Source: Demequinaceae bacterium (GTDB lineage: Bacteria; Actinomycetota; Actinomycetes; Actinomycetales; Demequinaceae). Taken from it: a stretch of DNA of 32,000 bases. A program made the translations under genes and the position numbers. The notes beneath the pieces were generated by a model that was not told the origin of the DNA, ran no database searches, and was given only the letters and a program-made list of their open reading frames with translations. Positions 1 to 13,543 of the stretch are shown piece by piece (positions within the stretch are counted from its first letter, which is position 1; the number at the start of each line of letters is the position of its first letter). The stretch covers positions 90,001 to 122,000 of the forward strand of contig OZ252279.1 of the NCBI GenBank assembly GCA_965250005.1, read 5' to 3'.

Positions 1-2340
1 AACGGGTCGCTCGTCACTCAGCCCGCCCCGCCCCCGCGCGCCGGTTACGCGTTCGACGGCTGGTTCGACGCCTCGAGCGGCGGCTCGGCCTGGGACTTCG
101 GATCCGACACCCTCACCGGCAACGTGACTCTCTACGCGCAGTGGTCCGCTATTCCGTACACACTGGCCTTTGACAGCCAGGGCGGCACACCGGTGACCGC
201 ACAGACGGTGCCGTACGACACGCTCGCCACCGAACCCACCGACCCCACGCGTGGCGGCTACACGTTCGACGGCTGGTACACGCTCAGCTCCGGCGGCGTC
301 GTGTGGGACTTCACGACCGACACCGTGGTCGCGGACGCCACCGTTTACGCGCAATGGACGCCTGTGGACTACACGCTCACGTACGACAGCCAAGGCGGCG
401 ACGCCGTGTCGAGTGAAACCGTCGCGTACGGCGCGCTCGCGACCGAGCCCGTTGACCCGACGCGCACGGGCTATACCTTCGACGGCTGGTCCACCGCCGT
501 ATCCGGCGGAAGCGCGTGGAACTTCGCGACGAACACCATGACGGGTGACCGCACCCTCTACGCCGCGTGGACGCCCGCGTCCTACACCGTCACCTTCGAC
601 ACCCAGGGCGGCAGTAGCGTCCCGGACGAGACCGTCGACTACAACGAGTTCGCGACCGAGCCGAGCGCGCCGACCCGCACAGGTTACGCGTTCGACGGCT
701 GGTTCGACTCCGCCTCCGGTGGGACCGCGTGGGACTTCGACGCGACCACGATCACCGATGACACGACCATCTACGCGCAGTGGACCATCTTGACCAACGT
801 CGTGTCGTTCGATAGCCAGGGCGGCGGTACGGTGCCGAACCAAACCATCGACTACGACGACACTGCCACCGAGCCGACCGAGCCCACCAAGTCCGGCTAC
901 ACCTTCGAAGGCTGGTTCAGCGCTCCGACCGCCGGTACCGAGTGGGACTTCACCACCGACACCGTGGTGACCAGCCTCACGCTGTACGGCCAGTGGACCA
1001 TCGTCACGTACACCGTCAGCTACGACAGCCAAGGTGGTTCCGCCGTGGCGAGCGAGTCCGTCAACTACGGTGGCCTCGCCACCGAGCCCACCGACCCGAC
1101 GCGCACCGGCTACACGTTCGATGACTGGTATTCGGCGTCGTCGGGCGGCTTCGTGTGGGACTTCACCAGCAACACCATCACCGCCGACAAAACGCTCTAC
1201 GCCGCGTGGACCCCGATCGATTACTCCGTCACGTTCGACACGCAGGGCGGCACGGTGGTGTCCGGCCAGACCGTCAGTTACAACACCTTCGCGGCGACGC
1301 CGGCGACACCCACCCGCACCGGCTACACATTCGACGGCTGGTTCGACGCGGCGTCCGGAGGGTCCGAATGGGACTTTGGCACCGACGCGATCACCGATGA
1401 CACCACGATCTACGCGCAGTGGACGATCATCACTAACCCCGTGACGTTCGACAGCCAGGGCGGCAGCGGCGTGTCGAGCCAAACCATCGACTACGACGGC
1501 CTCGTAGTAGAGCCTGTCGACCCGACGTTCACCGGCTTCACGTTTGACGGCTGGTTCGACGCGGCGTCCGGCGGCACCGCATGGGACTTTGGCGCCGACA
1601 CCGTCACGAGCCCGGAAACCTTGTACGCGCAGTGGACAGCGATCACGTACAACGTGACGTACGACAGCCAGGGCGGCTCGGCTGTCAGTTCCGAGACCGT
1701 CGGGTACAACGCACTCGTCACCGAGCCCGCCGACCCGACGCTCACCGGCTACACGTTCGACGGCTGGTTTGACGCTTCGTCGGCCGGGGCGCCGTGGGAC
1801 TTCCCATCCGACTCCGTGCTCGCGGACACGACCCTGTACGCGCAGTGGACAGCAATCGACTACACCGTGTCGTACTCGAGCCAGGGCGGTTCCGCCGTCG
1901 CGAGCGAGACCGTCGCGTTCAACGGCATGGCGACCGAGCCGTCCGACCCGACTCGACCCGGCTACACATTTCTGGGCTGGTTCGACTCGGCGTCCGGTGG
2001 ATCGGTGTGGGACTTCACGGGCACGTCCGTGTCGGGCGACATGACGTTGTACGCCCACTGGAGCGCGATCGACTACACCGTCACGTTCGATAGCCAGGGC
2101 GGAAGCGCGGAGGCGGCCCAGACCGTCAACTACGACGACCTCGTTGCCGAGCCCTCCGACGCCACGCTTTCCGGGTACACATTCCTCGGCTGGTTCGACG
2201 CGGCGTCCGGTGGCACGCTGTGGGACTTCGCGGCGGACGGGGTCACCGGCGACGTTACGCTCTACGCGCACTGGGCGCTGCTCGTCAACGTATCCTTCGT
2301 CAACGGCGCTGACACCATTCCGTCGCAGCTCGTGATCGTG
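1..2340 (+). repeat. In-frame tandem array with a 213-bp (71-aa) unit, about 11 copies, and a 639-bp three-unit super-period over units 2-8
   Basis: The F/Y codon of the xFDSQGG motif falls at 169, 382, 595, 808, 1021, 1234, 1447, 1660, 1873 and 2086, which is exactly 213 nt apart. The next one is at 2296 (210 nt). Units 2, 5 and 8 resemble each other (Y.V.YDSQGG..V.SE.V.Y..LATEP.DPTRTGYTFD ... TLYAAWTP). So do units 3 and 6 (TFDTQGG ... ITDDTTIYAQWTI) and units 4 and 7 (TN.V.FDSQGG). Confidence 0.9.
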
Positions 2341-2625
2341 GGCGGCTATGCCGTCCCGCCGTCGACGCCCGTGCGGGACGGATACACCTTCTTGGGATGG
2401 TTCACCGATCCGACCGGGGGCGACGAGTGGGACTTCGCCGTCGATCCCGCCACCGGCGACATCGTGTTGCACGCCCACTGGGAGCGGGACACGCTAGCGG
2501 CCACGGGTGCGCCCGTCGACCGCCAGGTCACGTGGGCGCTTGGATTGCTGCTCGGGGGATTCCTCCTGCTGATGCTTGGCCGCTGGCGCCGCACGCGGCT
2601 CCTGGGCATGAACGACCCCGCCTAG
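1..2625 (+). CDS. Cell-wall-anchored surface protein made of Listeria-Bacteroides type repeats (InlB B-repeat / Flg_new-like); 5' end lies outside the window
   Basis: Frame 1 is open from nt 1 (NGSLVTQPAPPPRAGYAFDGWFDASSGGSAWDF...) and continues into the listed ORF 124..2625. The motif Y-T-x-x-F-D-S-Q-G-G ... T-E-P-x-x-P-T-R-x-G-Y-T-F-D-G-W-F ... W-D-F ... T-L-Y-A-Q-W recurs about 11 times. The protein ends with an LAATG sorting signal. Confidence 0.9.
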   Translation, partial: NGSLVTQPAPPPRAGYAFDGWFDASSGGSAWDFGSDTLTGNVTLYAQWSAIPYTLAFDSQGGTPVTAQTVPYDTLATEPTDPTRGGYTFDGWYTLSSGGVVWDFTTDTVVADATVYAQWTPVDYTLTYDSQGGDAVSSETVAYGALATEPVDPTRTGYTFDGWSTAVSGGSAWNFATNTMTGDRTLYAAWTPASYTVTFDTQGGSSVPDETVDYNEFATEPSAPTRTGYAFDGWFDSASGGTAWDFDATTITDDTTIYAQWTILTNVVSFDSQGGGTVPNQTIDYDDTATEPTEPTKSGYTFEGWFSAPTAGTEWDFTTDTVVTSLTLYGQWTIVTYTVSYDSQGGSAVASESVNYGGLATEPTDPTRTGYTFDDWYSASSGGFVWDFTSNTITADKTLYAAWTPIDYSVTFDTQGGTVVSGQTVSYNTFAATPATPTRTGYTFDGWFDAASGGSEWDFGTDAITDDTTIYAQWTIITNPVTFDSQGGSGVSSQTIDYDGLVVEPVDPTFTGFTFDGWFDAASGGTAWDFGADTVTSPETLYAQWTAITYNVTYDSQGGSAVSSETVGYNALVTEPADPTLTGYTFDGWFDASSAGAPWDFPSDSVLADTTLYAQWTAIDYTVSYSSQGGSAVASETVAFNGMATEPSDPTRPGYTFLGWFDSASGGSVWDFTGTSVSGDMTLYAHWSAIDYTVTFDSQGGSAEAAQTVNYDDLVAEPSDATLSGYTFLGWFDAASGGTLWDFAADGVTGDVTLYAHWALLVNVSFVNGADTIPSQLVIVGGYAVPPSTPVRDGYTFLGWFTDPTGGDEWDFAVDPATGDIVLHAHWERDTLAATGAPVDRQVTWALGLLLGGFLLLMLGRWRRTRLLGMNDPA
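2494..2625 (+). other. C-terminal sortase sorting signal: LAATG (LAxTG, class E sortase type), hydrophobic span, basic tail
   Basis: cta gcg gcc acg ggt at 2494-2508 encodes LAATG. It is followed by APVDRQVTWALGLLLGGFLLLMLG and then RWRRTR, close to the stop codon. Confidence 0.75.
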
Positions 2626-2973: not shown

Positions 2974-3312
2974 TTACCGCGGCAAGTTGGGGCCGGGCGC
3001 GTACATCTCGCGCCAGCCTTCGGGCAGCCCGCTTTGCGTGTGCTGGGGGATCCACCCGACCAGCGCCAGTTTGAAGCCGTGCGCCATCGCGGCGCCACCG
3101 CCGCGGCCCGCCGCCTGAGCGACCGAAACGCCGAGGACCCACATCGCTCCCGCCGCGACGGCAATGGTGGCGACGAAGAACGCAGGCATCGCGTCCCTGG
3201 CGCCTTGCGTGATCAGCACGCCCATCCCGCCGATGGCGAGCACGAACCAGCCGAGCGCGATGACAACGTACGTGCGCTGCGCGGCCTTGGACCAGGTCTT
3301 GAAACGGATCAT
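2974..3312 (-). CDS. Small membrane protein (112 aa, two hydrophobic spans), family not recognised; paralog copy 1
   Basis: ATG-started ORF with high GC3 and hydrophobic segments VVIALGWFVLAIGGMGVLI and AFFVATIAVAAGAMWVLGV. A second copy at 8686-8985 matches at about 80 of 99 aligned residues by hand alignment. Confidence 0.7.
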   Translation of the reverse strand: MIRFKTWSKAAQRTYVVIALGWFVLAIGGMGVLITQGARDAMPAFFVATIAVAAGAMWVLGVSVAQAAGRGGGAAMAHGFKLALVGWIPQHTQSGLPEGWREMYAPGPNLPR

Positions 3313-4590: not shown

Positions 4591-5841
4591 ATGAATTCGA
4601 GTCGCGTCAAAGAGTTCACAGTTTCACTCGGCACCGTCACCGCGACTGCCGCGTTCGTTACCCTCATCGTGTTTGCCGCACTCGCATTCAATCACGTCGA
4701 ACTCGGGGTCAACTTGGCGGTGTCCGGGCTCTTGTTGGGCATGTTGATCCCCGTCGGACTTGAGGTTCGATCCCGATCATCGCGGCCGCGTCGAATACTA
4801 TTCCTGGACTTCCGGCGCCATCAATACGGTCAAGGTGTTGCTTCCGGCGCCCTGCGGGTCCTTCATGCGGACAAGCGCCAGTGGCTTGTCGATGTAAAAC
4901 AGCCTGAGGCGGCTGATGGCAAAGGATCTGTGCAATGGCAAATCCGGGAAATCGAATTGGCCATCATTGACAACATCGATGGCGTGATCATCATCCCGGC
5001 GGAAGACAGCGACGAACTCTGGCACGCTCTCGCGACGCTCGTTAAATCCAACGCGATGGTGATTGCGCTTGACAGCAAGCCCCCAAATGCCGTTTATCGC
5101 CGTGTCGGTCTTGACCCGCCGCGCTTTGTCTCGGCACGTTACGAAAAAACTGGCACCCTGATCGGTAACTGGCTCGCCGATTGGATGCTCGAGGATCCTG
5201 AGAGGACCTGCATTCTGTGGATCGGACCCGAGGGCAGTTGGGCTGGAGAAGAGCGGAGCCGCCAGATTATCTACTGCCTCGTGAAGGCTGGCGTCCAGGA
5301 CCGGATGAGGCTGCAGCCAATCAACAACTGGATGCCGACTCCCGAACGGTGCAATGAAACCCTCGACGTCATTGAGGCATCGGACGGACAAGTGGCGATC
5401 TATTGTGCTGACGACGAGAACGCGCTCGCTCTCCACCTGATGACCCTGACCGACCGGACGCCGCTCCGCTCCCAAATGCGCATTGTCGGATGCAACGCGA
5501 CTCCAGACGACTGGGGAAACATCCCAGCCGTAGACATGCACGCTGTCGACGTGACTGTCGATATTCTCGCTCAAGAGCAGGGCGCGGAGGCGGCACGGCT
5601 GCTCGTGCTTGAACGGTACGGAAAGTTGTCATCCACGCAACGGAGCGTCTACATTGCCCCGCACATCCTGGTTCCGGGGGCACGGGAAGTCCGCTGGCTG
5701 GACCGGATCTTTGACGGTCACGATGTTGAGATCGCTACTCCTGCTCCTCCTACGCCAGGGGAGGCCCCCAGCGAGCCAAGCATTCCGGTGGTCACCACTC
5801 GCCACAACACCAAGAAGCGCGACAAAGGGACTCCCTCGTAG
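4591..5841 (+). CDS. Membrane-tethered periplasmic-binding-protein type I (LacI/ribose-binding-like) ligand-binding domain protein without an HTH (cassette gene B)
   Basis: GAAGGAG lies 7-8 nt before the ATG. Two N-terminal hydrophobic spans are followed by RSRSSRPRR. PBP1-like blocks are present: DGVIIIPAEDSDELWHALATLVKSNAMVIALD, VSARYEKTGTLIGNWLADWM, CILWIGPEG, VAIYCADDENALALHLMTL and MRIVGCNATPDD. Many A/T-ending codons (aaa, caa, gaa, att, gat) contrast with neighbouring genes. Confidence 0.75.
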   Translation: MNSSRVKEFTVSLGTVTATAAFVTLIVFAALAFNHVELGVNLAVSGLLLGMLIPVGLEVRSRSSRPRRILFLDFRRHQYGQGVASGALRVLHADKRQWLVDVKQPEAADGKGSVQWQIREIELAIIDNIDGVIIIPAEDSDELWHALATLVKSNAMVIALDSKPPNAVYRRVGLDPPRFVSARYEKTGTLIGNWLADWMLEDPERTCILWIGPEGSWAGEERSRQIIYCLVKAGVQDRMRLQPINNWMPTPERCNETLDVIEASDGQVAIYCADDENALALHLMTLTDRTPLRSQMRIVGCNATPDDWGNIPAVDMHAVDVTVDILAQEQGAEAARLLVLERYGKLSSTQRSVYIAPHILVPGAREVRWLDRIFDGHDVEIATPAPPTPGEAPSEPSIPVVTTRHNTKKRDKGTPS

Positions 5842-6082: not shown

Positions 6083-8689
6083 ATGGTGTTCCTTGAAGAC
6101 AAGAGCCCGGTGCAGGTGCCACCTGACACGATCGAACTACGTGTCCACGGGGTGTCCGGGACGCCCCCGGACACCATGCTCAAGTCCCCGGTGGTGCGGG
6201 TCTCCGGGGATGAGGACTCCGGCTTCTATCGCAAGCCCGGAGAGACGAACGCCACGGGCGTGTCCGAGGCGTACAGCTGGAGCGGGCTCACCAGCGGCGC
6301 CCGGATCACCGCGTACTGGCTGCTGCTCTTACCGTTCTCGCTCATCAACGTAGCCGGCTGGGCCATTCCCACGCAGCCCGTCGAGGGCGGCAGAGTCAAG
6401 GGCGAGAAGGACGGCACGGCACGCTCGCGCCGCACCAAGAAGCGCTGGATCAAAGTGCGCGGCGCCATCAACCGCGTGCTCGCGTTGCTGCTCTCGGCCG
6501 TGGTCGCCGCAGGGCTGTTCCACCTGTCATTCCTTGTCTTTGGGCCCAGTGATACGTACCCAGGGGGGCTGCTGTCGTGGGGCGTGCGCCTGGACCTGCT
6601 CGTGATGCTGGTTGCCGCGAGCGCAATCCCGTTCGTGCTGTCGCGTTTGGGGCTGTGGTCGGGCCGGGCCACACGCACGCGGCGCACGCCGCGGTACCCC
6701 CCCTCCCGGCCTGCCGCCAAACCCGGGAAGCAGCCCGGCCTGTTCGCCCGCTTCTTCCACTTTGAAGAGCTCGATCTCGAGATGGACGTGACGGCGCACC
6801 CGTCCATCCAGCCAAGCAAGGATGTCAAGGGCCTGGCCGATCGCCAAGAGAAGGCCCGCAAGAAGGGCGCCGCATACGACGAGGAGGCGGACAGCGCCGC
6901 CCACGCTTGGCGGCGCTGGGACAGCCAAGTGTTCATCCGCAAACTCGCATTCGTGCACCGGATCATGGTGCTGTCGATCGTGGTGCTCTGCTACGGCGCG
7001 GTGCTGCTTGGCACTGCCGAGTCGGCATCAGGGCACGACGCTCTCGTCGCCCCCGCGCGCGTGCTCATTGCTTTGTCCGCGATCACGGTCGTCCTTTGCA
7101 TCGTCACCGTGGTGGCGATGGACCAGGCGAACGGGGGGCCCCTGCGGTGGCTCGTGTTTGCCACCGTGAACCTTGGCCGCATCGCGTGGGCCGGCGCCGT
7201 TGTTGTGACATTCACCGCGGAGCTACCCGACGCGATGGGGTCCGACAACCCCGTGACCACCACGGGCATCTGGTTACTTGCGGCTACCGCAATCCTGCTG
7301 ATCTCCCTGTGGGCCCTCGACTTTGCCCTGTGCACCGACACCCACCTGCGCACGTCGCGCTTCTACTCAGCGGCGCTCTCGTCCGCCGCGTTCTTTGTGG
7401 TGATCCCCCCGTATGCGCTCGCGATCCTCGCGATCGATCGGTTGTTGATCGACGGCGTCGAGGTCGGGTGGATCAGCATCGCCGTCCCCGCGTCCACGGC
7501 GCTGTTCCTGCTCATTGCCATGCGCTTCCTCTGGGTTGCGGACTTTGTTGGCCGCAAGCGTGTCCGCCCGCGCGCGGCGAAGGCCGATCCGTACTCGCGT
7601 GAGGATGCCGCGTACCTGACACAGAAGCATCGGCGCGTCGGCACCCGCGAGGGGGTGGACACCGCTGGCGACACGATTCGCGGTGCAGTCCCAGCGTGGC
7701 TGCTCGTAGCGCTGGTGGCGGCGATCGTGAATGCGGCCGGCAGCGTGCTCGGGTTTGAGTCTGCTCTCGGAGAGCCCGCCGTCGGCATGGCCCTGGTCGT
7801 TGCGCTGTCTGCGGCGCTGGTGGGCGTGGCACTGCTCGACGACCGGCAGCGAGTAGCGGGCTTGACGGCGCTCGCAATCCTGGGTGGGACGTCGGCCGCG
7901 TTGTACTTGTTAGAGCCGAAGTGGGCCGCGTGGTTTATCGACGCGCTGGAGCGGACGGCCGATTGGCTGGTGGTCGCTGTCATTTGGGGGTCGGTCGCTG
8001 TGCCGGGCCTGGGGATCCTGTGGTTCCTGCTTCGTGGGTCCAAAGAGCGCGACGCACGCAAGGGCGTGGGGCTGCTGTGGGACGTTGTGAACTTCTGGCC
8101 GCGCTTCTACCACCCGTGGGCGCCCCCCGCATATGCCCACCGCGCCGCCGAGGACCTGGTTGCGCGCATCGAGACGCTCGTGGACAGCAGCCCCAAGTCC
8201 GGCAAGGCGCACAAGCTCAAGGTGGTCGTTAGCGCCCACAGCCAGGGCGCGACTGTCGTGTTTCCCGCGCTTGCGACGCTCGCTGTGGTGCGCCCGGACC
8301 TGCGCGACAACGTCAGACTGCTCACGTACGGGTGCATGCTCGAGACCCTTTACGAACGCATCACGCCCGCATTCTTTGGCCCCGCGGGGATCAGGGGCAT
8401 GGACCGGCGGCTCGAGCACCGGTGGATACACCTGTACCGCCGCACCGACTGGTTGGGGCAGCCCATCTGCACTCTAGGCGATCGCAACATCGAGGTGCCG
8501 TCGTACGAGGAGGTCACGGAGGACGAGGCCCTGTCACACGAGAATTACCAGTACAGCGACCGCTACCAGGTCGCGCTTATCGAGCTGGCGAAGCGGGGCA
8601 AGACGTCGATGCCCGCGAAGTACCGTGGGCCACAGTCCGACCCACGCGACCCTGACGAGGACCTCGCGCCCGCATGCTCGCCCGACTAG
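6083..8689 (+). CDS. Large polytopic membrane protein with lipase-like alpha/beta-hydrolase motifs at the N- and C-termini (cassette gene C)
   Basis: 868-aa ORF with high GC3. LRVHGVSGTPP lies at 6143-6160. I count about 13 hydrophobic segments by eye. The C-terminal soluble domain has VVVSAHSQGATVV (AHSQG at 8234-8248), YRRTDWLG (Asp codon 8447-8449) and LSHENY (His codon 8537-8539). Confidence 0.85.
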   Translation: MVFLEDKSPVQVPPDTIELRVHGVSGTPPDTMLKSPVVRVSGDEDSGFYRKPGETNATGVSEAYSWSGLTSGARITAYWLLLLPFSLINVAGWAIPTQPVEGGRVKGEKDGTARSRRTKKRWIKVRGAINRVLALLLSAVVAAGLFHLSFLVFGPSDTYPGGLLSWGVRLDLLVMLVAASAIPFVLSRLGLWSGRATRTRRTPRYPPSRPAAKPGKQPGLFARFFHFEELDLEMDVTAHPSIQPSKDVKGLADRQEKARKKGAAYDEEADSAAHAWRRWDSQVFIRKLAFVHRIMVLSIVVLCYGAVLLGTAESASGHDALVAPARVLIALSAITVVLCIVTVVAMDQANGGPLRWLVFATVNLGRIAWAGAVVVTFTAELPDAMGSDNPVTTTGIWLLAATAILLISLWALDFALCTDTHLRTSRFYSAALSSAAFFVVIPPYALAILAIDRLLIDGVEVGWISIAVPASTALFLLIAMRFLWVADFVGRKRVRPRAAKADPYSREDAAYLTQKHRRVGTREGVDTAGDTIRGAVPAWLLVALVAAIVNAAGSVLGFESALGEPAVGMALVVALSAALVGVALLDDRQRVAGLTALAILGGTSAALYLLEPKWAAWFIDALERTADWLVVAVIWGSVAVPGLGILWFLLRGSKERDARKGVGLLWDVVNFWPRFYHPWAPPAYAHRAAEDLVARIETLVDSSPKSGKAHKLKVVVSAHSQGATVVFPALATLAVVRPDLRDNVRLLTYGCMLETLYERITPAFFGPAGIRGMDRRLEHRWIHLYRRTDWLGQPICTLGDRNIEVPSYEEVTEDEALSHENYQYSDRYQVALIELAKRGKTSMPAKYRGPQSDPRDPDEDLAPACSPD

Positions 8690-8985
8690 TTCGGCAGGTC
8701 GGGGTGAGGCGCGTACAACTCGCGCCAGCCTCTTGGCAGGCCGCTCTGTAGGTGCTTGGGGATCCACCCGATCAGCGTTAGCTTGAAGCCGTGCGCCATG
8801 GCCGCACTGCCGCCCCGGCCGGCCCCCTGAGCCACTGAGACGCCGAGGATCCACATCGCCCCCGCTGCCACCAAGATCGAGGCGACGAAGAACGCGGGCA
8901 TCGCGTCCCGGGCGCCTTGCGCCACCAGAACGCCGAGCCCGCCGATGGCGAGCACGAACCAGCCGAGCGCGATGACTACGCACAT
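8686..8985 (-). CDS. Small membrane protein, paralog copy 2; the ancestral start position carries ATA, so the start may be internal
   Basis: 99-aa ORF from the ATG at 8985, about 81% identical to copy 1. The frame stays open upstream to a TGA at 9037-9039. It encodes ITRLETWSKTAQR, collinear with MIRFKTWSKAAQR of copy 1, but ATA at 9024-9022 replaces ATG. Confidence 0.6.
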   Translation of the reverse strand: MCVVIALGWFVLAIGGLGVLVAQGARDAMPAFFVASILVAAGAMWILGVSVAQGAGRGGSAAMAHGFKLTLIGWIPKHLQSGLPRGWRELYAPHPDLPN

Positions 8986-9060
8986 GCGTTGCGCCGTCTT
9001 GGACCAGGTCTCTAAACGGGTTATGAGCTCAGGCTCTCATGTGTGGTGCGGTCCGTGCCG
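8686..9060 (-). repeat. Direct repeat copy 2 (small membrane-protein gene plus 36-nt leader)
   Basis: See copy 1. The similarity ends at 9060, 2 nt before the mazF stop codon at 9062-9064. Confidence 0.8.
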
Positions 9061-9061
9061 T

Positions 9062-9367
9062 TTACGAGACGTCCAGATCGAACGCCGCGAAGATGCCGCG
9101 CGCGAGTTCGCGCTCCTGGCTCGCGTCGAGGTAGCCGACCACCGGGCCGAGGGCGTCGCGCGCGATGGTGGCGACGTTGTCGAGCGAGATGACGGAGTCG
9201 TGGTCGAGCCCATTGCGTGCGCCTACCGGCACTTCCGTGGAGAGGCCGCGCACCGTGGATGTGATGGGAGCGACGGTGATGCGGGCGAGGAACGGGACTA
9301 CCTGGGCACGGGTGAGCACCACCACCGGGCGCGGCTTGTCGAGGCGGGCGGTGTGGATGGGGCGCAT
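9062..9367 (-). CDS. mazF: Type II toxin, MazF/PemK family endoribonuclease
   Basis: The 101-aa sequence MRPIHTARLDKPRPVVVLTR...ITVAPITSTVRGLSTEVPV...DSVISLDNVATIARDALGPVVGYL fits the MazF/PemK pattern, of the short-N-terminus type I recall from mycobacterial MazF proteins. Its start overlaps the upstream stop codon (TGATG). Confidence 0.85.
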   Translation of the reverse strand: MRPIHTARLDKPRPVVVLTRAQVVPFLARITVAPITSTVRGLSTEVPVGARNGLDHDSVISLDNVATIARDALGPVVGYLDASQERELARGIFAAFDLDVS

Positions 9368-9609
9368 CAGTCGAGGTTCCGCCAGCCGTCTTGGGCTGCC
9401 GAGGTGAACGCGGTGAGGTCCTCGGGCTCGGTTGTGCCGCTCGCGGCATGGTAGATCGCGGCGTCGGCGAGCGCGACTTGGTGGCGCCGCTCGCGCATGA
9501 GTGCTTGCGCGACAACGGCTGCTCGGCTGCGGGCGTCGCCGGCGGTAACCTGCGCATCGGCAAAAGCGACGAGTTCGTCAGGGATCCGGACGGTGATCTG
9601 AGTGGACAT
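9367..9609 (-). CDS. mazE: Ribbon-helix-helix antitoxin (MazE-like)
   Basis: MSTQITVRIPDELVAFADAQV...SRAAVVAQAL is a typical RHH N-terminus. I chose the ATG at 9609 rather than the ORF-track start at 9678. The gene is translationally coupled to mazF. Confidence 0.75.
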   Translation of the reverse strand: MSTQITVRIPDELVAFADAQVTAGDARSRAAVVAQALMRERRHQVALADAAIYHAASGTTEPEDLTAFTSAAQDGWRNLD

Positions 9610-9617
9610 GCCTTGAG

Positions 9618-9646
9618 CATACCGTGTAACATCCCAGATTGGTATG
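9618..9646 (-). promoter_or_regulatory. Inverted repeat CATACC-N17-GGTATG overlapping a TATGCT -10-like hexamer just upstream of mazE; candidate autoregulatory operator with a leaderless start
   Basis: On the minus strand the sequence reads ...GCCATACCAATCTGGGATGTTACACGGTATGCTCAAGGCATG. TATGCT ends 6 nt before the ATG, and the -35 region is poor. Confidence 0.3.
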
Positions 9647-10061
9647 GCACTCGCGGCGGAAGGAATAGCGGCGGTCATGGGACGACGCTACGGCGCGCTG
9701 GCGCCGCGCGGGCGCTATCCACAGGCCGAGTCGCGGCGCGCCGAACGCGGACCCTGCGCTCGGACCCGACGTCAGTTGTCATGCCGTCGACGTTAGCGTT
9801 CTAGTCGCGAGCGCGCGGGGTCTGGGACTGAATCGTGACTTGTCCGGAACTTGGAGGTGTCTTGCGGCTAGGCCTCGCGCGGATCCGGACCGTGCTTGTT
9901 CGCGCCCTTGCGGCTGGGCTTTGCTCGCGCGCGTCGGCGTGAATGCTCAGTGCAGCGGCGCTACACCCAGCGCACAGAAACGCGCCCCTCGCGCCGCGAC
10001 CCCAACGGGCGCTAGCCTGGGCGCATACGCAACCACCCCGTCGTCAACTGAGGAGATATCC

Positions 10062-11924
10062 ATGGACAAGCCCACCCTGCTGCAGCGCTGGCGCTACTGG
10101 TTCGACAACTTCATGGGTAGGGGAACGGGCGCGATGCTCGCGTTCCTGGGCGCCATCACCGTTGCGTTCATCCTGGTCAATACTGCGATCGTGAAAGTGC
10201 TCAACCAGGGTGAAGGCGGAGAGACGGAAACGTGGGCCGAGATCCTGTGGAACAACACCGTGAGCGTGCTGCGGTCCAAGGATGTGGTGGAGGGCACCCC
10301 GTGGGCGTTCCGGTTCGCGATGCTCGCGATCACCATCATCGGCGTGCTCATTGTGGCGAACCTGATCGGAATCATGGCGGGCGCGTTCAATGCGAAGGTC
10401 AAGGCCCTCAACCGCGGGCGGTCAGCCGTAATCGAGCGCAACCACACGGCAATCATCGGCTGGAACTCCAAGATAATCCAGATAGTGACCGCGCTGTGCG
10501 AGGCGAACGAGTCCAAGGGCAAGTCTGTGATCGTCATCATGGCCGACCGCGACAAGGTCGAGATGGACGAGGCGATTCGCGAGAAGATCGCCGACCCGGG
10601 CCGCACCAAGATTATTGTGCGCAGCGGCGACCCTCTCGACCAGGACGACCTGCTGCGTGTGCGGCCGTTCCGCGCCAAATCTGTGATCGTGCTCGCGTCG
10701 GAGGAGTACCCCGATAGCGACGCACGCGTCATCAAAATCGCACTCGCGTTGTCCCGCCATCCCGAGCGCCCCGCCACCGAGCTCAACCTGGTGGGTCAGA
10801 TCGCCAACCCCAAGAACCTCAAGGTTGCCCAGCTCGCCGGCCCCGACAAGGCCCAATGGCTACTGGGCACGGAGAAGATCGGCCAGATCACCGCTCAAAC
10901 CAGCCACCAGCCCGGATTGAGCGCCGTCTACTCTGAGTTGCTCAGCTTCAAGGGTTCCGAAATCTACTTCTCCCCGCAGCCCACGCTCGCGGGCGTCACG
11001 TACGCCGAGGCGCAGCTGAAGTATGCCGAAAGCACCGTGATCGGCGTCTCCACGGGTGGGGACGTGCACCTCAACCCGGCGCCCAACACGCAGCTTGGCG
11101 CAGACGTCAACCTCATCGTGATTGCCGAGGACGACTCCAAGATCGCTGTTACCGAGCCGGGACAGCCAGACCGGCGCGTGTACTCCAAGGCGAAGAAGAG
11201 CGCTCCCAGGGCGCACAAGACGCTGATTCTGGGAGCGAACCTGACGCTGCCGCACGTGCTCCGTGCACTGGACGCGTATTCCGCCAAGGGTTCCACGGTC
11301 ACCATCGTCTCCGAGTTCGACGTGCCGCCCGTGGGCAAATTCGCCAACGCGTCGGTGAAGATAGTTGAGGGAGACGCATCCGACCGCGACACACTTGACC
11401 AACTCAAGCCGGCTACGTACGATCACGTGATCGTGCTCGCCTACTCCGAAGACTTGCCGGTGCGGCAGGCAGACACCCGCACGCTCGTGACGCTACTGCA
11501 CCTGCGCGACATCATGGAAACCACCGGAAAGAACTTCAACGTGGTGAGCGAGATGTTGGACGAGAAGAACCGCCGCCTGGCCGAGGTCACTAAGGTCAAC
11601 GACTTCATCGTCTCGGACCACCTCGTCAGCCTGATGGTCGCACAGGTCTCCGAAAGCCCGCGTATGGCCGCGGTCTTCGCAGACCTCTTCTCTGCGCAGG
11701 GCAGCGAGATATACGTTCGACCGGCAGACTGGTACGTCAAGACCGGCAGCACGGTTGACTTCTACACGGTCACTGGTGCTGCGTCTGAGCGCAATGAAAC
11801 GGCCATCGGTTACATGATCGCCGCGCATGACGGTGGCGAGCCGATCATCGCGGTCAGCCCTTCGAACGCCGCGAACGTCACATTCGGCATGGACGACAGG
11901 ATTATTGTCCTCGCGGAGGGCTAG
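10062..11924 (+). CDS. CASTOR/POLLUX(DMI1)-related putative ion channel: two TM helices plus tandem RCK/TrkA-N domains
   Basis: AGGAG at 10051-10055 precedes the ATG at 10062. The in-frame extension back to 9840 has low GC3 and looks non-coding. RNHTAIIGWNSKIIQIVTAL resembles the CASTOR HILILGWSDKLG Rossmann start. A second RCK-like half begins at KTLILGANLTLPHVLRAL. Confidence 0.85.
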   Translation: MDKPTLLQRWRYWFDNFMGRGTGAMLAFLGAITVAFILVNTAIVKVLNQGEGGETETWAEILWNNTVSVLRSKDVVEGTPWAFRFAMLAITIIGVLIVANLIGIMAGAFNAKVKALNRGRSAVIERNHTAIIGWNSKIIQIVTALCEANESKGKSVIVIMADRDKVEMDEAIREKIADPGRTKIIVRSGDPLDQDDLLRVRPFRAKSVIVLASEEYPDSDARVIKIALALSRHPERPATELNLVGQIANPKNLKVAQLAGPDKAQWLLGTEKIGQITAQTSHQPGLSAVYSELLSFKGSEIYFSPQPTLAGVTYAEAQLKYAESTVIGVSTGGDVHLNPAPNTQLGADVNLIVIAEDDSKIAVTEPGQPDRRVYSKAKKSAPRAHKTLILGANLTLPHVLRALDAYSAKGSTVTIVSEFDVPPVGKFANASVKIVEGDASDRDTLDQLKPATYDHVIVLAYSEDLPVRQADTRTLVTLLHLRDIMETTGKNFNVVSEMLDEKNRRLAEVTKVNDFIVSDHLVSLMVAQVSESPRMAAVFADLFSAQGSEIYVRPADWYVKTGSTVDFYTVTGAASERNETAIGYMIAAHDGGEPIIAVSPSNAANVTFGMDDRIIVLAEG

Positions 11925-11974: not shown

Positions 11975-13543
11975 CTAAGTGCTCTGAGCCGGCGGAGGAG
12001 GAGGAGGTGGCGGAGGTGGCTGGACGGCCGGAGTGGGCTGCGTGACTGGCGGAGCTAACGGAAACGGACGGCTCCGCGTGACCGCCGGACTGGGGACCGC
12101 CGGACTGGGGACCGCCGGACTGGGGACCGCCGGAGTAGGGGCCTCTGCGGTGACAGGCGCGGGTAGGCCAGGAAATGGCGCAGCCGGGGCGGGAACTGCC
12201 GGAGTCTCGACCGGGGGTTCCGCGACCACGTCGCCTTCAGTATTGGAGCGGTGTGTACCCCCGCGACGCGGGGGTTTCTTGGCCCGCTGGGCGACCGGTG
12301 TGTCCTTGAACACGGGCTGCCAGAACGCCTCCGCGCCGGGACGAATTGAAGCCCCCTCGGGCTCGGCGAGCCCAAGCAAAGCGCGCGCGCTCCGCGAGTG
12401 GGGGTCGGCCTTGAACCAGCCGCGAGCCTTCGCCCACAGCATGCCAAAAACTAGCATCCCGATGAACGTGGTCGCGCCAACCGAAAGGAACACGGTGGGC
12501 GCCCCTGCAAACACCATTGCGGTCCACGAGGCGAGTCCCGCCACAAGGCCGACCGCGCCCGCAAACGCGTAGGCGGGCGCCCAGCGGCCTTCGCCGGGGG
12601 AGTGCACCCTTGCCAGCGAGTTGAGGATCAGGGCTGAGGCGATCACCGCTACGGTCACGGCGAGGATGACTGTGGTGCCGCTGGATGCATCTTCGTATGA
12701 GCGGGTGAGGCTCAGCGGCACGAGCAGAGCGAGGGCTGAGAATCCTAGGATCGCGCCTGGGATTCCAAAGACGTAGCGCCAGGGCTTGCGAGGATCGGGC
12801 CGGCGGCTCGATTCGCTGACGAGCACCATTGCGATCAACGCTGCGATTAGGCCAAGTACCACTGGAGCAGGCACGGCGAAGATCGCTGCCCGTGGCTGTA
12901 TCGTGTCCGATAGTTCGACCACAGCGATGTCTTCACAGCAGCTAGCCCCAAGGAAGCCTTCGCGGGTCCAAGCGCCCGCCTCCCTTCGCGTCGCGAATCC
13001 GTCGCGCCCGTTGGCGGCGACCACCGTGTATCCTTCCGCGTCGCCAATGACCGCGACGCCGCGGGTTGCAAGATCGGAGGGGATTCCCGTCAGGTGCGGC
13101 AGGGCGGCCTCGAGTTGGTCGCGCTGAGTGTCCGGGACCTCCCACTCGATCGTCCACGTCGCGCCGGCATCGTCGCTACGTTCCACCGCCAGGCGGTCGC
13201 GCACGGCACGGAAGCACGTGTTTGGGGCGCCGTCGACGCATTCCATGCGATGAAGGTTGGCGGTAGCCACCGTGGGAAGTCCCGCCTTGATGCCGTCCGA
13301 CCCAAGAACAAAGGACCATCGGCTCAAGTTACCGGAGCCGATCCAGCCCGCTGGGGCGAACCCGTCGTCGGCGAGTTGTCCGATGTAGAGAACGTTGTCT
13401 ACCGTCGCGGCGCCAAAAGCGCTTGGCTGATCAGGGGAGGTGCCCGCAGCGGTCAACAATACGGCGGCTGACGTGATTGCGGCCGTTTGCGCAGCCATCT
13501 TGCCCACGCGGCGCGCGTTGTCGCGCGCTTCCCTCAAATTCAT
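11975..13543 (-). CDS. Polytopic membrane protein with an N-terminal exported domain carrying one Asp-box (BNR-like) motif and a proline-rich C-terminal tail
   Basis: GGAGGA precedes the ATG at 13543. SDDAGATW matches the Asp-box pattern S-x-D-x-G-x-T-W. At least five hydrophobic spans follow. The tail reads ...PAVPSPAVPSPAVPSPAV...PPPPPPPPPP. Confidence 0.75.
   Translation of the reverse strand: MNLREARDNARRVGKMAAQTAAITSAAVLLTAAGTSPDQPSAFGAATVDNVLYIGQLADDGFAPAGWIGSGNLSRWSFVLGSDGIKAGLPTVATANLHRMECVDGAPNTCFRAVRDRLAVERSDDAGATWTIEWEVPDTQRDQLEAALPHLTGIPSDLATRGVAVIGDAEGYTVVAANGRDGFATRREAGAWTREGFLGASCCEDIAVVELSDTIQPRAAIFAVPAPVVLGLIAALIAMVLVSESSRRPDPRKPWRYVFGIPGAILGFSALALLVPLSLTRSYEDASSGTTVILAVTVAVIASALILNSLARVHSPGEGRWAPAYAFAGAVGLVAGLASWTAMVFAGAPTVFLSVGATTFIGMLVFGMLWAKARGWFKADPHSRSARALLGLAEPEGASIRPGAEAFWQPVFKDTPVAQRAKKPPRRGGTHRSNTEGDVVAEPPVETPAVPAPAAPFPGLPAPVTAEAPTPAVPSPAVPSPAVPSPAVTRSRPFPLAPPVTQPTPAVQPPPPPPPPPPAQST
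12081..12140. repeat. 15-bp tandem repeat accgccggactgggg, 3 perfect copies plus 1 imperfect, in frame (encodes PAVPS repeats on the minus strand)
   Basis: Units at 12081-12095, 12096-12110 and 12111-12125 are identical. The unit at 12126-12140 has 2 mismatches. Confidence 0.9.

Follow-up and report, generated by a model that had tools for sequence, protein, structure and literature searches.

The gene at positions 6083–8689 on the plus strand of a 32,000-nucleotide window (the whole stretch of DNA that was analysed, positions 90,001 to 122,000 of contig OZ252279.1 from a Demequinaceae bacterium) encodes a polytopic membrane protein of 868 amino acids, both ends of which carry motifs of an alpha/beta-hydrolase. 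From the predicted structures, we consider it reasonably likely that the two ends belong to one hydrolase fold that is split after strand beta4, and that they come together again at the cytoplasmic surface of the membrane. An initial annotation, made from the sequence of the window alone, had left a choice between a lipase-like fold divided by a very large membrane insertion and an N-terminal motif unrelated to the rest. The divided fold is favoured here because the C-terminal part is incomplete, the N-terminal part holds the missing strands, the motifs are invariant, and the two parts are always found together in one open reading frame (ORF); contact between the parts, and a first hydrophobic segment that does not span the membrane, are what we infer from it.

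The ORF (868 codons plus stop) opens with an ATG that is supported as the start because homologues begin at the same aligned position; the source is a complete actinobacterial genome of 2.0 Mb with approximately 66% G+C, and the gene is present in one copy. By codon-by-codon checking, LRVHGVSGTPP was placed at residues 19–29, with the proposed oxyanion-hole dipeptide His22 (6146–6148) and Gly23 (6149–6151) at 6146–6151; AHSQG at residues 718–722, with the nucleophile Ser720 at 8240–8242; YRRTDW at residues 785–790, with the proposed catalytic acid Asp789 at 8447–8449; and LSHENY at residues 817–822, with the proposed catalytic base His819 at 8537–8539 (all plus strand), in agreement with the residue numbers first assigned. 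The spacing from the HG motif to Ser720 is 698 residues.

Homologues were collected by a word-indexed search, which returned 123 proteins, all of 690–1150 amino acids and all annotated as hypothetical or integral membrane proteins. Among cluster representatives at 50% identity, 2040 matched at E ≤ 1e-3 and 1475 at E ≤ 1e-10; the family is a large one. Named sources were all Actinomycetota (Demequina, Micromonospora, Streptomyces, Nonomuraea, Nocardiopsis and Pseudonocardia), the closest named homologues being those of Demequina. The family was present in 25 of 301 sampled genomes of the phylum, including 8/8 genomes of one actinobacterial family with 7–10-Mb genomes, and in 4/24 genomes of the family to which the window itself belongs (0/2 of the same genus). 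The N- and C-terminal modules lay in a single ORF, 1.5–2.1 kb apart, in each genome with a match, and two matched stretches, one N-terminal and one C-terminal, were seen in nearly all of the best 150 of the 2040 representatives. No Pfam or NCBIfam model matched the 868-residue query, and no paper on the family was found in literature searches.

Conservation was measured on a main alignment of 108 homologues (23–31% identical to the query) and, for positions of the N-terminal module and the first hydrophobic segment, on a second alignment of 244 sequences. Glu18, His22, Gly23, Val24, Glu62, Trp66, Pro84, Asn89, His292, Arg659, Asp667, Trp672, Pro673 and Arg674 were invariant (108/108), and His22-Gly23 was kept in 244/244 sequences of the second alignment. 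The initial annotation had asked whether the putative triad is conserved, and it is: Ser720 was found in 107, Asp789 in 106 and His819 in 105 of the 108 homologues, the exceptions being gaps (both of the remaining two at Asp789) and a single Pro at position 819; Gly722 was kept in 107/108. Given such conservation across 108 divergent homologues, the motif set is, on sequence grounds, no chance pattern. The membrane part was otherwise poorly conserved in this alignment. Only six positions of the insert reached 90% or more, four of them on the cytoplasmic face (Pro96, Arg131, Trp279 and His292), one in mid-membrane (Thr138) and one, a Pro, in a loop on the outer side, where the loops vary between clades. 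His292 (6956–6958, plus strand; 108/108) lies at the cytoplasmic end of helix 4, and close to it are Trp279 (6917–6919; 103/108) and Arg131 (6473–6475; 104/108), both on the plus strand and more than 95% conserved.

Structures were predicted with AlphaFold2 and read at the level of secondary structure (DSSP) and confidence. The model of the query had a mean predicted local distance difference test score (pLDDT) of 74 and a predicted template modelling score (pTM) of 0.79, with pLDDT 84–96 in the N- and C-terminal modules, and that of a compact homologue, P0035 (25% identical), a mean pLDDT of 89.7 and a pTM of 0.92. The N-terminal soluble module (residues 12–74; 6116–6304, plus strand) is composed of a strand at 16–22 that runs into His22-Gly23 (the beta3 equivalent), a hairpin at 38–42/47–50 and a strand at 60–65 (the beta4 equivalent) that carries EAYSW; the same elements are present in P0035. 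The C-terminal catalytic module (residues 655–840; 8045–8602, plus strand; pLDDT approximately 90) starts with a juxtamembrane helix and the motif W666-D-x4-W-P-R-x2-H-P-x2-P-P-x-Y684, followed by helix alphaB (684–701), a strand at 713–719, Ser720, helix alphaC (721–736), beta6 (744–749), alphaD, beta7 (781–785), Asp789, a short beta8, the His819 loop and a final helix at 826–837.

These elements were compared with those of alpha/beta-hydrolases. The nucleophile elbow A718-H-S720-Q-G722 has the small-x-Ser-x-small pattern and is placed in both models at a strand–turn–helix junction, between the strand at 713–719 and the helix at 721–736. The putative triad follows in the order Ser720, Asp789 (after beta7) and His819, and the order Ser, Asp, His is typical of alpha/beta-hydrolases. 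An invariant strand-HG element is present and is a candidate for the oxyanion donor; in lipases, strand-HG-x-x-G is the canonical oxyanion element. In both models the sheet of the C-terminal module consists of beta5, beta6, beta7 and the short beta8 only, with the nucleophile strand at its edge; as modelled, the module is an alpha/beta-hydrolase from alphaB onward and not a complete fold. A C-terminal domain that forms a complete hydrolase fold without the N-terminal strand, which the initial annotation had named as the outcome that would overturn a divided fold, was therefore not what AlphaFold2 returned. In both models four strands were counted in the N-terminal part and three to four in the C-terminal part, which would give a canonical sheet if they were combined. 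The N-terminal part, so modelled, supplies exactly what the C-terminal part lacks, namely the beta3–oxyanion turn and beta4, with no duplication and nothing else missing. The pieces being complementary, the membrane domain is placed in the loop after beta4.

The polytopic insert occupies residues 96–654 (6368–8044, plus strand) and was assigned, from hydropathy, the AlphaFold2 models and loop charge, 12 spanning helices and three long basic cytoplasmic loops. These helices were placed at 127–153, 172–192, 287–314, 319–348, 353–378, 390–415, 425–455, 462–491, 538–555, 565–583, 587–608 and 625–651; residues 530–610 were modelled at low confidence (pLDDT 39–54). Between residues 75 and 651, a Kyte–Doolittle scan and the AlphaFold2 helices agreed on 13 hydrophobic segments, in line with the approximately 13 first counted. 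Long basic loops had likewise been noted, as two; three were found, at 96–126 (11 Lys plus Arg among 31 residues), 193–286 (19 Lys plus Arg) and 492–537 (11 Lys plus Arg). The family core consists of 10 spanning helices plus the first hydrophobic segment (segment 1), and the query of 12 plus segment 1; its two extra helices (approximately 538–583) are even in number, so orientation is preserved.

The orientation of the C-terminal module was read from four lines of evidence. If segment 1 is followed by a cytoplasmic loop, 42 Lys plus Arg fall in inside loops and 3 in outside loops, and P0035 shows the same alternation of charge with 10 spanning helices. The loop that joins helices 2 and 3 (query residues 154–171), predicted to be outside, carries a C-x(3–12)-C pair in 197 of 238 members (83%; consensus A-W-Q-C-x5-C), the query and a Demequina-like clade having a shorter loop without the Cys pair. 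One member, P0095, encoded on a 13-kb metagenome contig, carries a GmrSD_C (DUF1524) HNH-type nuclease domain at residues 941–1058, after the hydrolase. Because of the loop charges, the P0035 pattern, the outside Cys pair and the nuclease fusion, the C-terminal module is assigned to the cytoplasm, where the initial annotation had also put it by the positive-inside rule. A nuclease fusion such as that of P0095 would be unexpected in a lipid enzyme, and it gives a hint that conflict systems include some members of the family.

A caveat raised at the outset, that an odd number of spans would place the N-terminal segment outside, proved real and robust, as it applies equally with 10 or 12 helices plus segment 1. 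Since the C-terminal module is cytoplasmic, helix parity requires that segment 1 does not span if the two parts are to be reassembled. Segment 1 (residues 75–95, ITAYWLLLLPFSLINVAGWAI; 6305–6367, plus strand) is the best-conserved hydrophobic segment: among 244 sequences, Pro84 was kept in 244, Asn89 in 243, Phe85 in 239 and Leu82 in 231, with Arg at position 76 in 82% and Arg often at position 95, so that 18 residues lie between the flanks at 76 and 95. Its conservation extends to all faces, which speaks for a segment buried in protein and not facing lipid. From helix parity, we propose that the segment is non-spanning, either re-entrant or buried, and in the query model its helix breaks at residue 82. 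In PglC and caveolin, a helix is made re-entrant by a branched-residue-Pro motif with a basic N-terminal flank, and experiments have shown that these segments enter and exit on the cytoplasmic face (PMC6133551). PglC and caveolin-1 resemble segment 1 in having a predicted transmembrane segment of approximately 20 residues that has a basic N-terminal flank and, midway along it, a conserved branched-residue-Pro or Ser-Pro; segment 1 has an invariant Leu83-Pro84 and, in 82% of members, Arg at position 76, but there is no homology, and the helix break is seen in one of the two models.

The alternative that survives best, unlikely in our estimation but to be weighed point by point, is that the membrane separates the two modules: segment 1 would be a true transmembrane helix, the N-terminal beta domain would be extracytoplasmic with a non-catalytic HG, and the C-terminal part would be a truncated hydrolase-like domain completed by, for example, juxtamembrane helices. 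Several results weigh against a rejoined fold and for this arrangement or for none. If all hydrophobic segments are counted as spanning, there are 11 in the core and 13 in the query, and the N-terminal module falls outside; in the more confident P0035 model (pTM 0.92), segment 1 is one continuous helix of 21 residues, unbroken at the Pro. A mean-field coupling analysis was run on 244 and then 236 sequences (effective number approximately 174), the first runs being dominated by gap artefacts; once these were removed, credible pairs within domains were obtained (717–749 and 790–818, for example), and N–C couplings that were barely above a shuffled null and had no clean strand-pairing pattern. 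The N-terminal module has no significant similarity to hydrolase N-termini: in hhalign against a low-diversity, purpose-built DUF900 alignment it reached a probability of 0.3% alone, with nothing aligned, and the joined N- and C-terminal modules one of 15%, over the elbow only. None of the Pfam alpha/beta-hydrolase models reached threshold for the query, for homologues or for the joined modules, and a profile of the joined modules found no unsplit soluble relatives, only gene fragments or frameshifted gene calls, of which none spanned the N- and the C-terminal part together.

Modules on opposite sides would, on the other hand, leave the C-terminal module with a sheet of three or four strands, its nucleophile strand at the edge and no second oxyanion donor, and the strand-HG-x-x-G of the N-terminal module is the pattern of the canonical oxyanion element of lipases. 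They would also require export of a module of 75–165 residues that has 7 Lys plus Arg and no signal peptide. The N-terminal module is moreover invariant across clades, whereas the outside loops on which it would have to dock are unconserved. A rejoined fold is preferred for the converse reasons: export would be unusual for a module without signal peptide, with 7 Lys plus Arg and with up to 89 residues upstream of it (N-terminal extensions across the family are 16 residues long at the median and 89 at most); its conservation pattern matches that of the cytoplasmic face; segment 1 has the branched-residue-Pro motif and basic flank of PglC and caveolin; and profile and fold searches matched only alpha/beta-hydrolases that act on lipids or esters.

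Those searches returned weak matches throughout. With the joined N- and C-terminal profile, the best sequence match in the PDB was to the type VI secretion system phospholipase Tle3 (8boz; E 0.006, 49 elbow residues); a cutinase (4oyy) was matched at E 0.0076, and other weak profile or fold matches were to feruloyl esterase A, Lipase_3, DUF900, CaPLA1, LCAT, LPLA2 and CALB. All are lipid- or ester-acting alpha/beta-hydrolases, matched over the elbow region (with or without the following strand) and below curated thresholds. Sub-threshold Pfam matches of homologues and of joined modules were to Lipase_3, Cutinase, DUF900, Hydrolase_4 and Tle3. Whether the joined profile was compared with the PDB or single joined sequences with Pfam, the nucleophile elbow alone aligned. 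Foldseek searches of both whole models against the PDB gave only weak, local alpha/beta-hydrolase matches (E > 0.1); a sequential aligner cannot bridge the insert of 580 residues. By sequence, then, the protein resembles a small lipase/cutinase-type hydrolase, yet it fails every curated family tested.

Cutinases, class 3 lipases and feruloyl esterase A (PF01083, PF01764; 4oyy, 1cex, 1uwc) were the best recurring matches. The likeness to them lies in a small Ser-Asp-His alpha/beta-hydrolase core and an x-S-Q-G elbow (G-Y-S-Q-G in cutinase), but enzymes of this type are soluble, secreted and contiguous, whereas the fold of the query is interrupted after beta4 by 10–12 helices and is predicted to face the cytoplasm. 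Membership of Cutinase (PF01083), whose domain has approximately 200 amino acids, was rejected on a score of 18 bits against a cut-off of 25.9, the lack of a signal peptide and the interruption of approximately 580 residues. Tle3 (8boz; PF24322) has the same H-S-Q-G elbow after a P-x-x-Y…helix; it is, however, a toxin that is soluble and secreted and has an immunity partner, unlike the present proteins, which are integral to the membrane and have no partner gene, and membership was rejected (49 residues matched, 14.4 bits against 27, no conserved neighbour). In oxyanion holes of this kind, one NH follows the nucleophile and the other comes from a position distant in sequence (PMC9860674). The second NH of Tle3, that of Val55, lies 210 residues before Ser265 (PMC9860674), which shows how far apart oxyanion elements can be in sequence.

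The order of elements is also that of DUF900 (PF05990), in which a strand-HG-x-x-(G/T) is followed by a strand ending in (Y/F)-S-W-x-S/G-G, a helix and x-A-H-S-x-G. The same order would hold for minimal lipases such as LipA of Bacillus subtilis. Both groups are contiguous and soluble, unlike the query. The DUF900 Pfam model matched 2 of 40 members (best E 3.6e-4, below cut-off) and did not match the query; with these sub-threshold results and the hhalign scores given above, membership of DUF900 was rejected. The only DUF900 gene in 151 genomes of the phylum (L011, G079:C96) was 99% identical to a Hyphomicrobium protein, and the short contig that carries it is probably assembly contamination. 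In architecture, the closest analogues are the glycosylphosphatidylinositol inositol deacylase PGAP1/Bst1, MprF-like proteins and AT3-SGNH proteins, which join a lipid-acting domain to a polytopic domain and have the active site at the membrane surface. PGAP1, MprF-like and AT3-SGNH proteins keep the catalytic domain uninterrupted, either preceding or following the helices, whereas here the helices would lie inside the catalytic fold; there was no sequence or fold match to any of them.

If the two ends do form one fold, the gene product would be an integral membrane enzyme of the alpha/beta-hydrolase type, a serine hydrolase or acyltransferase whose catalytic fold draws on both chain ends. Residues 1–74 would give beta3 with the His22-Gly23 oxyanion turn, the hairpin and beta4, and the last approximately 190 structured residues alphaB, the Ser720 strand, beta6, beta7 with Asp789, and His819, the polytopic domain being inserted in the loop after beta4. 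Both halves would be cytoplasmic, with segment 1 dipping into the inner leaflet or buried, and the active site would be held against the inner membrane face, beside His292, Trp279 and Arg131, which lie where helices end on the cytoplasmic side. The invariance or near-invariance of these three residues suggests a part for the insert in the substrate site. The enzyme would attack an ester (or thioester) bond and form an acyl-Ser720 intermediate; its substrate would be embedded in the membrane and is probably a membrane lipid. A stronger version, to which we give little weight, makes the insert functional in its own right, as a module of unrecognised fold that binds or translocates lipid and has His292, Trp279 and Arg131 at its cytoplasmic mouth. 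Formation of acyl-Ser720 on the cytoplasmic face would then be coupled to acylation or deacylation of an acceptor that is embedded in the membrane or translocated; fold matches of the insert to MATE/Wzx were insignificant (TM-score approximately 0.2).

To our knowledge, the elaborations described for alpha/beta-hydrolases are caps, lids and terminal membrane anchors, and a whole domain of 10–12 helices inside the fold is not among them. We know of no characterised alpha/beta-hydrolase with a polytopic domain inserted within its fold, and literature searches for one found none. If it holds, the combination of such an insertion with a non-crossing segment would be a novel means of keeping the active site of a serine hydrolase at the inner leaflet. 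Topology predictors would mis-assign segment 1, which makes the family a clean test case for them. Were the insert in addition a coupled unit, the proteins would form a new class of membrane acyltransferase or lipid-remodelling enzyme in which insertion inside the fold is the coupling device. Assignment of the substrate would annotate thousands of genes and may reveal a new step of actinobacterial membrane-lipid metabolism.

The initial annotation had described the architecture as effector-like, and a role in a conflict system, as a membrane-damaging lipase of a defence island or toxin cassette that kills the cell or a competitor, was weighed and is judged very unlikely. The gene does sit in a three-gene cassette between direct repeats of 83% identity, adjoined by mazEF, and P0095 is fused to the GmrSD_C nuclease domain; the best PDB sequence match is a type VI phospholipase, but only 49 residues of the elbow are involved. 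PADLOC-DB returned no family at E ≤ 1 for the 868-residue protein or its two upstream neighbours. No conserved gene neighbourhood was found around homologues, and no immunity-like gene; the neighbours are housekeeping genes, one homologue lying between aconitase and a TRAM tRNA methyltransferase and another between a response regulator and smpB. Carriage by all eight genomes of one large-genome family also speaks against an effector, as do the plasmid records: tblastn of a plasmid collection gave two matches, to a 727-kb Streptomyces replicon and to an 11.85-Mb Nonomuraea record that is chromosome-sized, and judged by these matches the family is essentially chromosomal. The effector-like label is for these reasons unsupported. 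That the protein is a catalytically dead scaffold keeping the hydrolase shape is barely credible: the query departs from the family at positions conserved in at least 89% (R660K, F761T and N783H), has Thr76 where 82% have Arg, and carries P790W at a moderately conserved position (Pro in 79/108), yet Ser720, Asp789, His819, His22 and Gly23 are kept in the query and throughout the family, as purifying selection on catalysis would keep them.

Downstream of the catalytic module, the protein ends in an acidic, Pro-rich tail (residues 841–868; 8603–8686, plus strand) that is predicted to be disordered (pLDDT < 50), is unaligned and is not conserved. The stop codon of the gene overlaps that of a convergent small membrane-protein gene (CTAG, 8686–8689), and there is therefore no intergenic room for a terminator; a scan for promoters and terminators around the gene gave nothing above shuffle expectation. 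The convergent gene belongs to a direct repeat of 300 nucleotides and 83% identity (2980–3279 and 8692–8991), the two copies of which are minus-strand genes for small membrane proteins (112 and 99 amino acids) and bracket the plus-strand cassette of three genes (256, 416 and 868 amino acids). G+C falls to 0.59–0.61 at 4–6 kb. The second cassette gene (4591–5841, plus strand) encodes a protein of 416 amino acids in which hydrophobic helices at the N-terminus accompany a Peripla_BP_4-like domain (31.9 bits against a cut-off of 35.1); this periplasmic-binding-protein-like gene was not found in the genomes of five relatives, four of which carry a homologue of the hydrolase.

Before the first repeat copy, positions 1–2625 (plus strand) encode the last part of a giant surface protein, in which there are at least 11 Listeria–Bacteroides (Flg_new) repeats that have a period of exactly 213 nucleotides and a DNA identity of 63–77% between units. 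Beside the second copy, a PemK/MazF-type toxin (100 amino acids) and, upstream of it, a ribbon-helix-helix/ParD-like antitoxin (102 amino acids) are encoded at 9062–9678 (minus strand), the stop codon of the antitoxin gene overlapping the start of the toxin gene. The next gene (9840–11924, plus strand) encodes a bacterial CASTOR/POLLUX-like cation channel of 694 amino acids with Castor_Poll_mid, Slo-like RCK and TrkA_N domains. It is followed at 11975–13543 (minus strand) by a gene for a protein of 522 amino acids without a Pfam match, which combines several hydrophobic helices with a Pro-rich tail in which PAVPS repeats and a run of 11 prolines occur.

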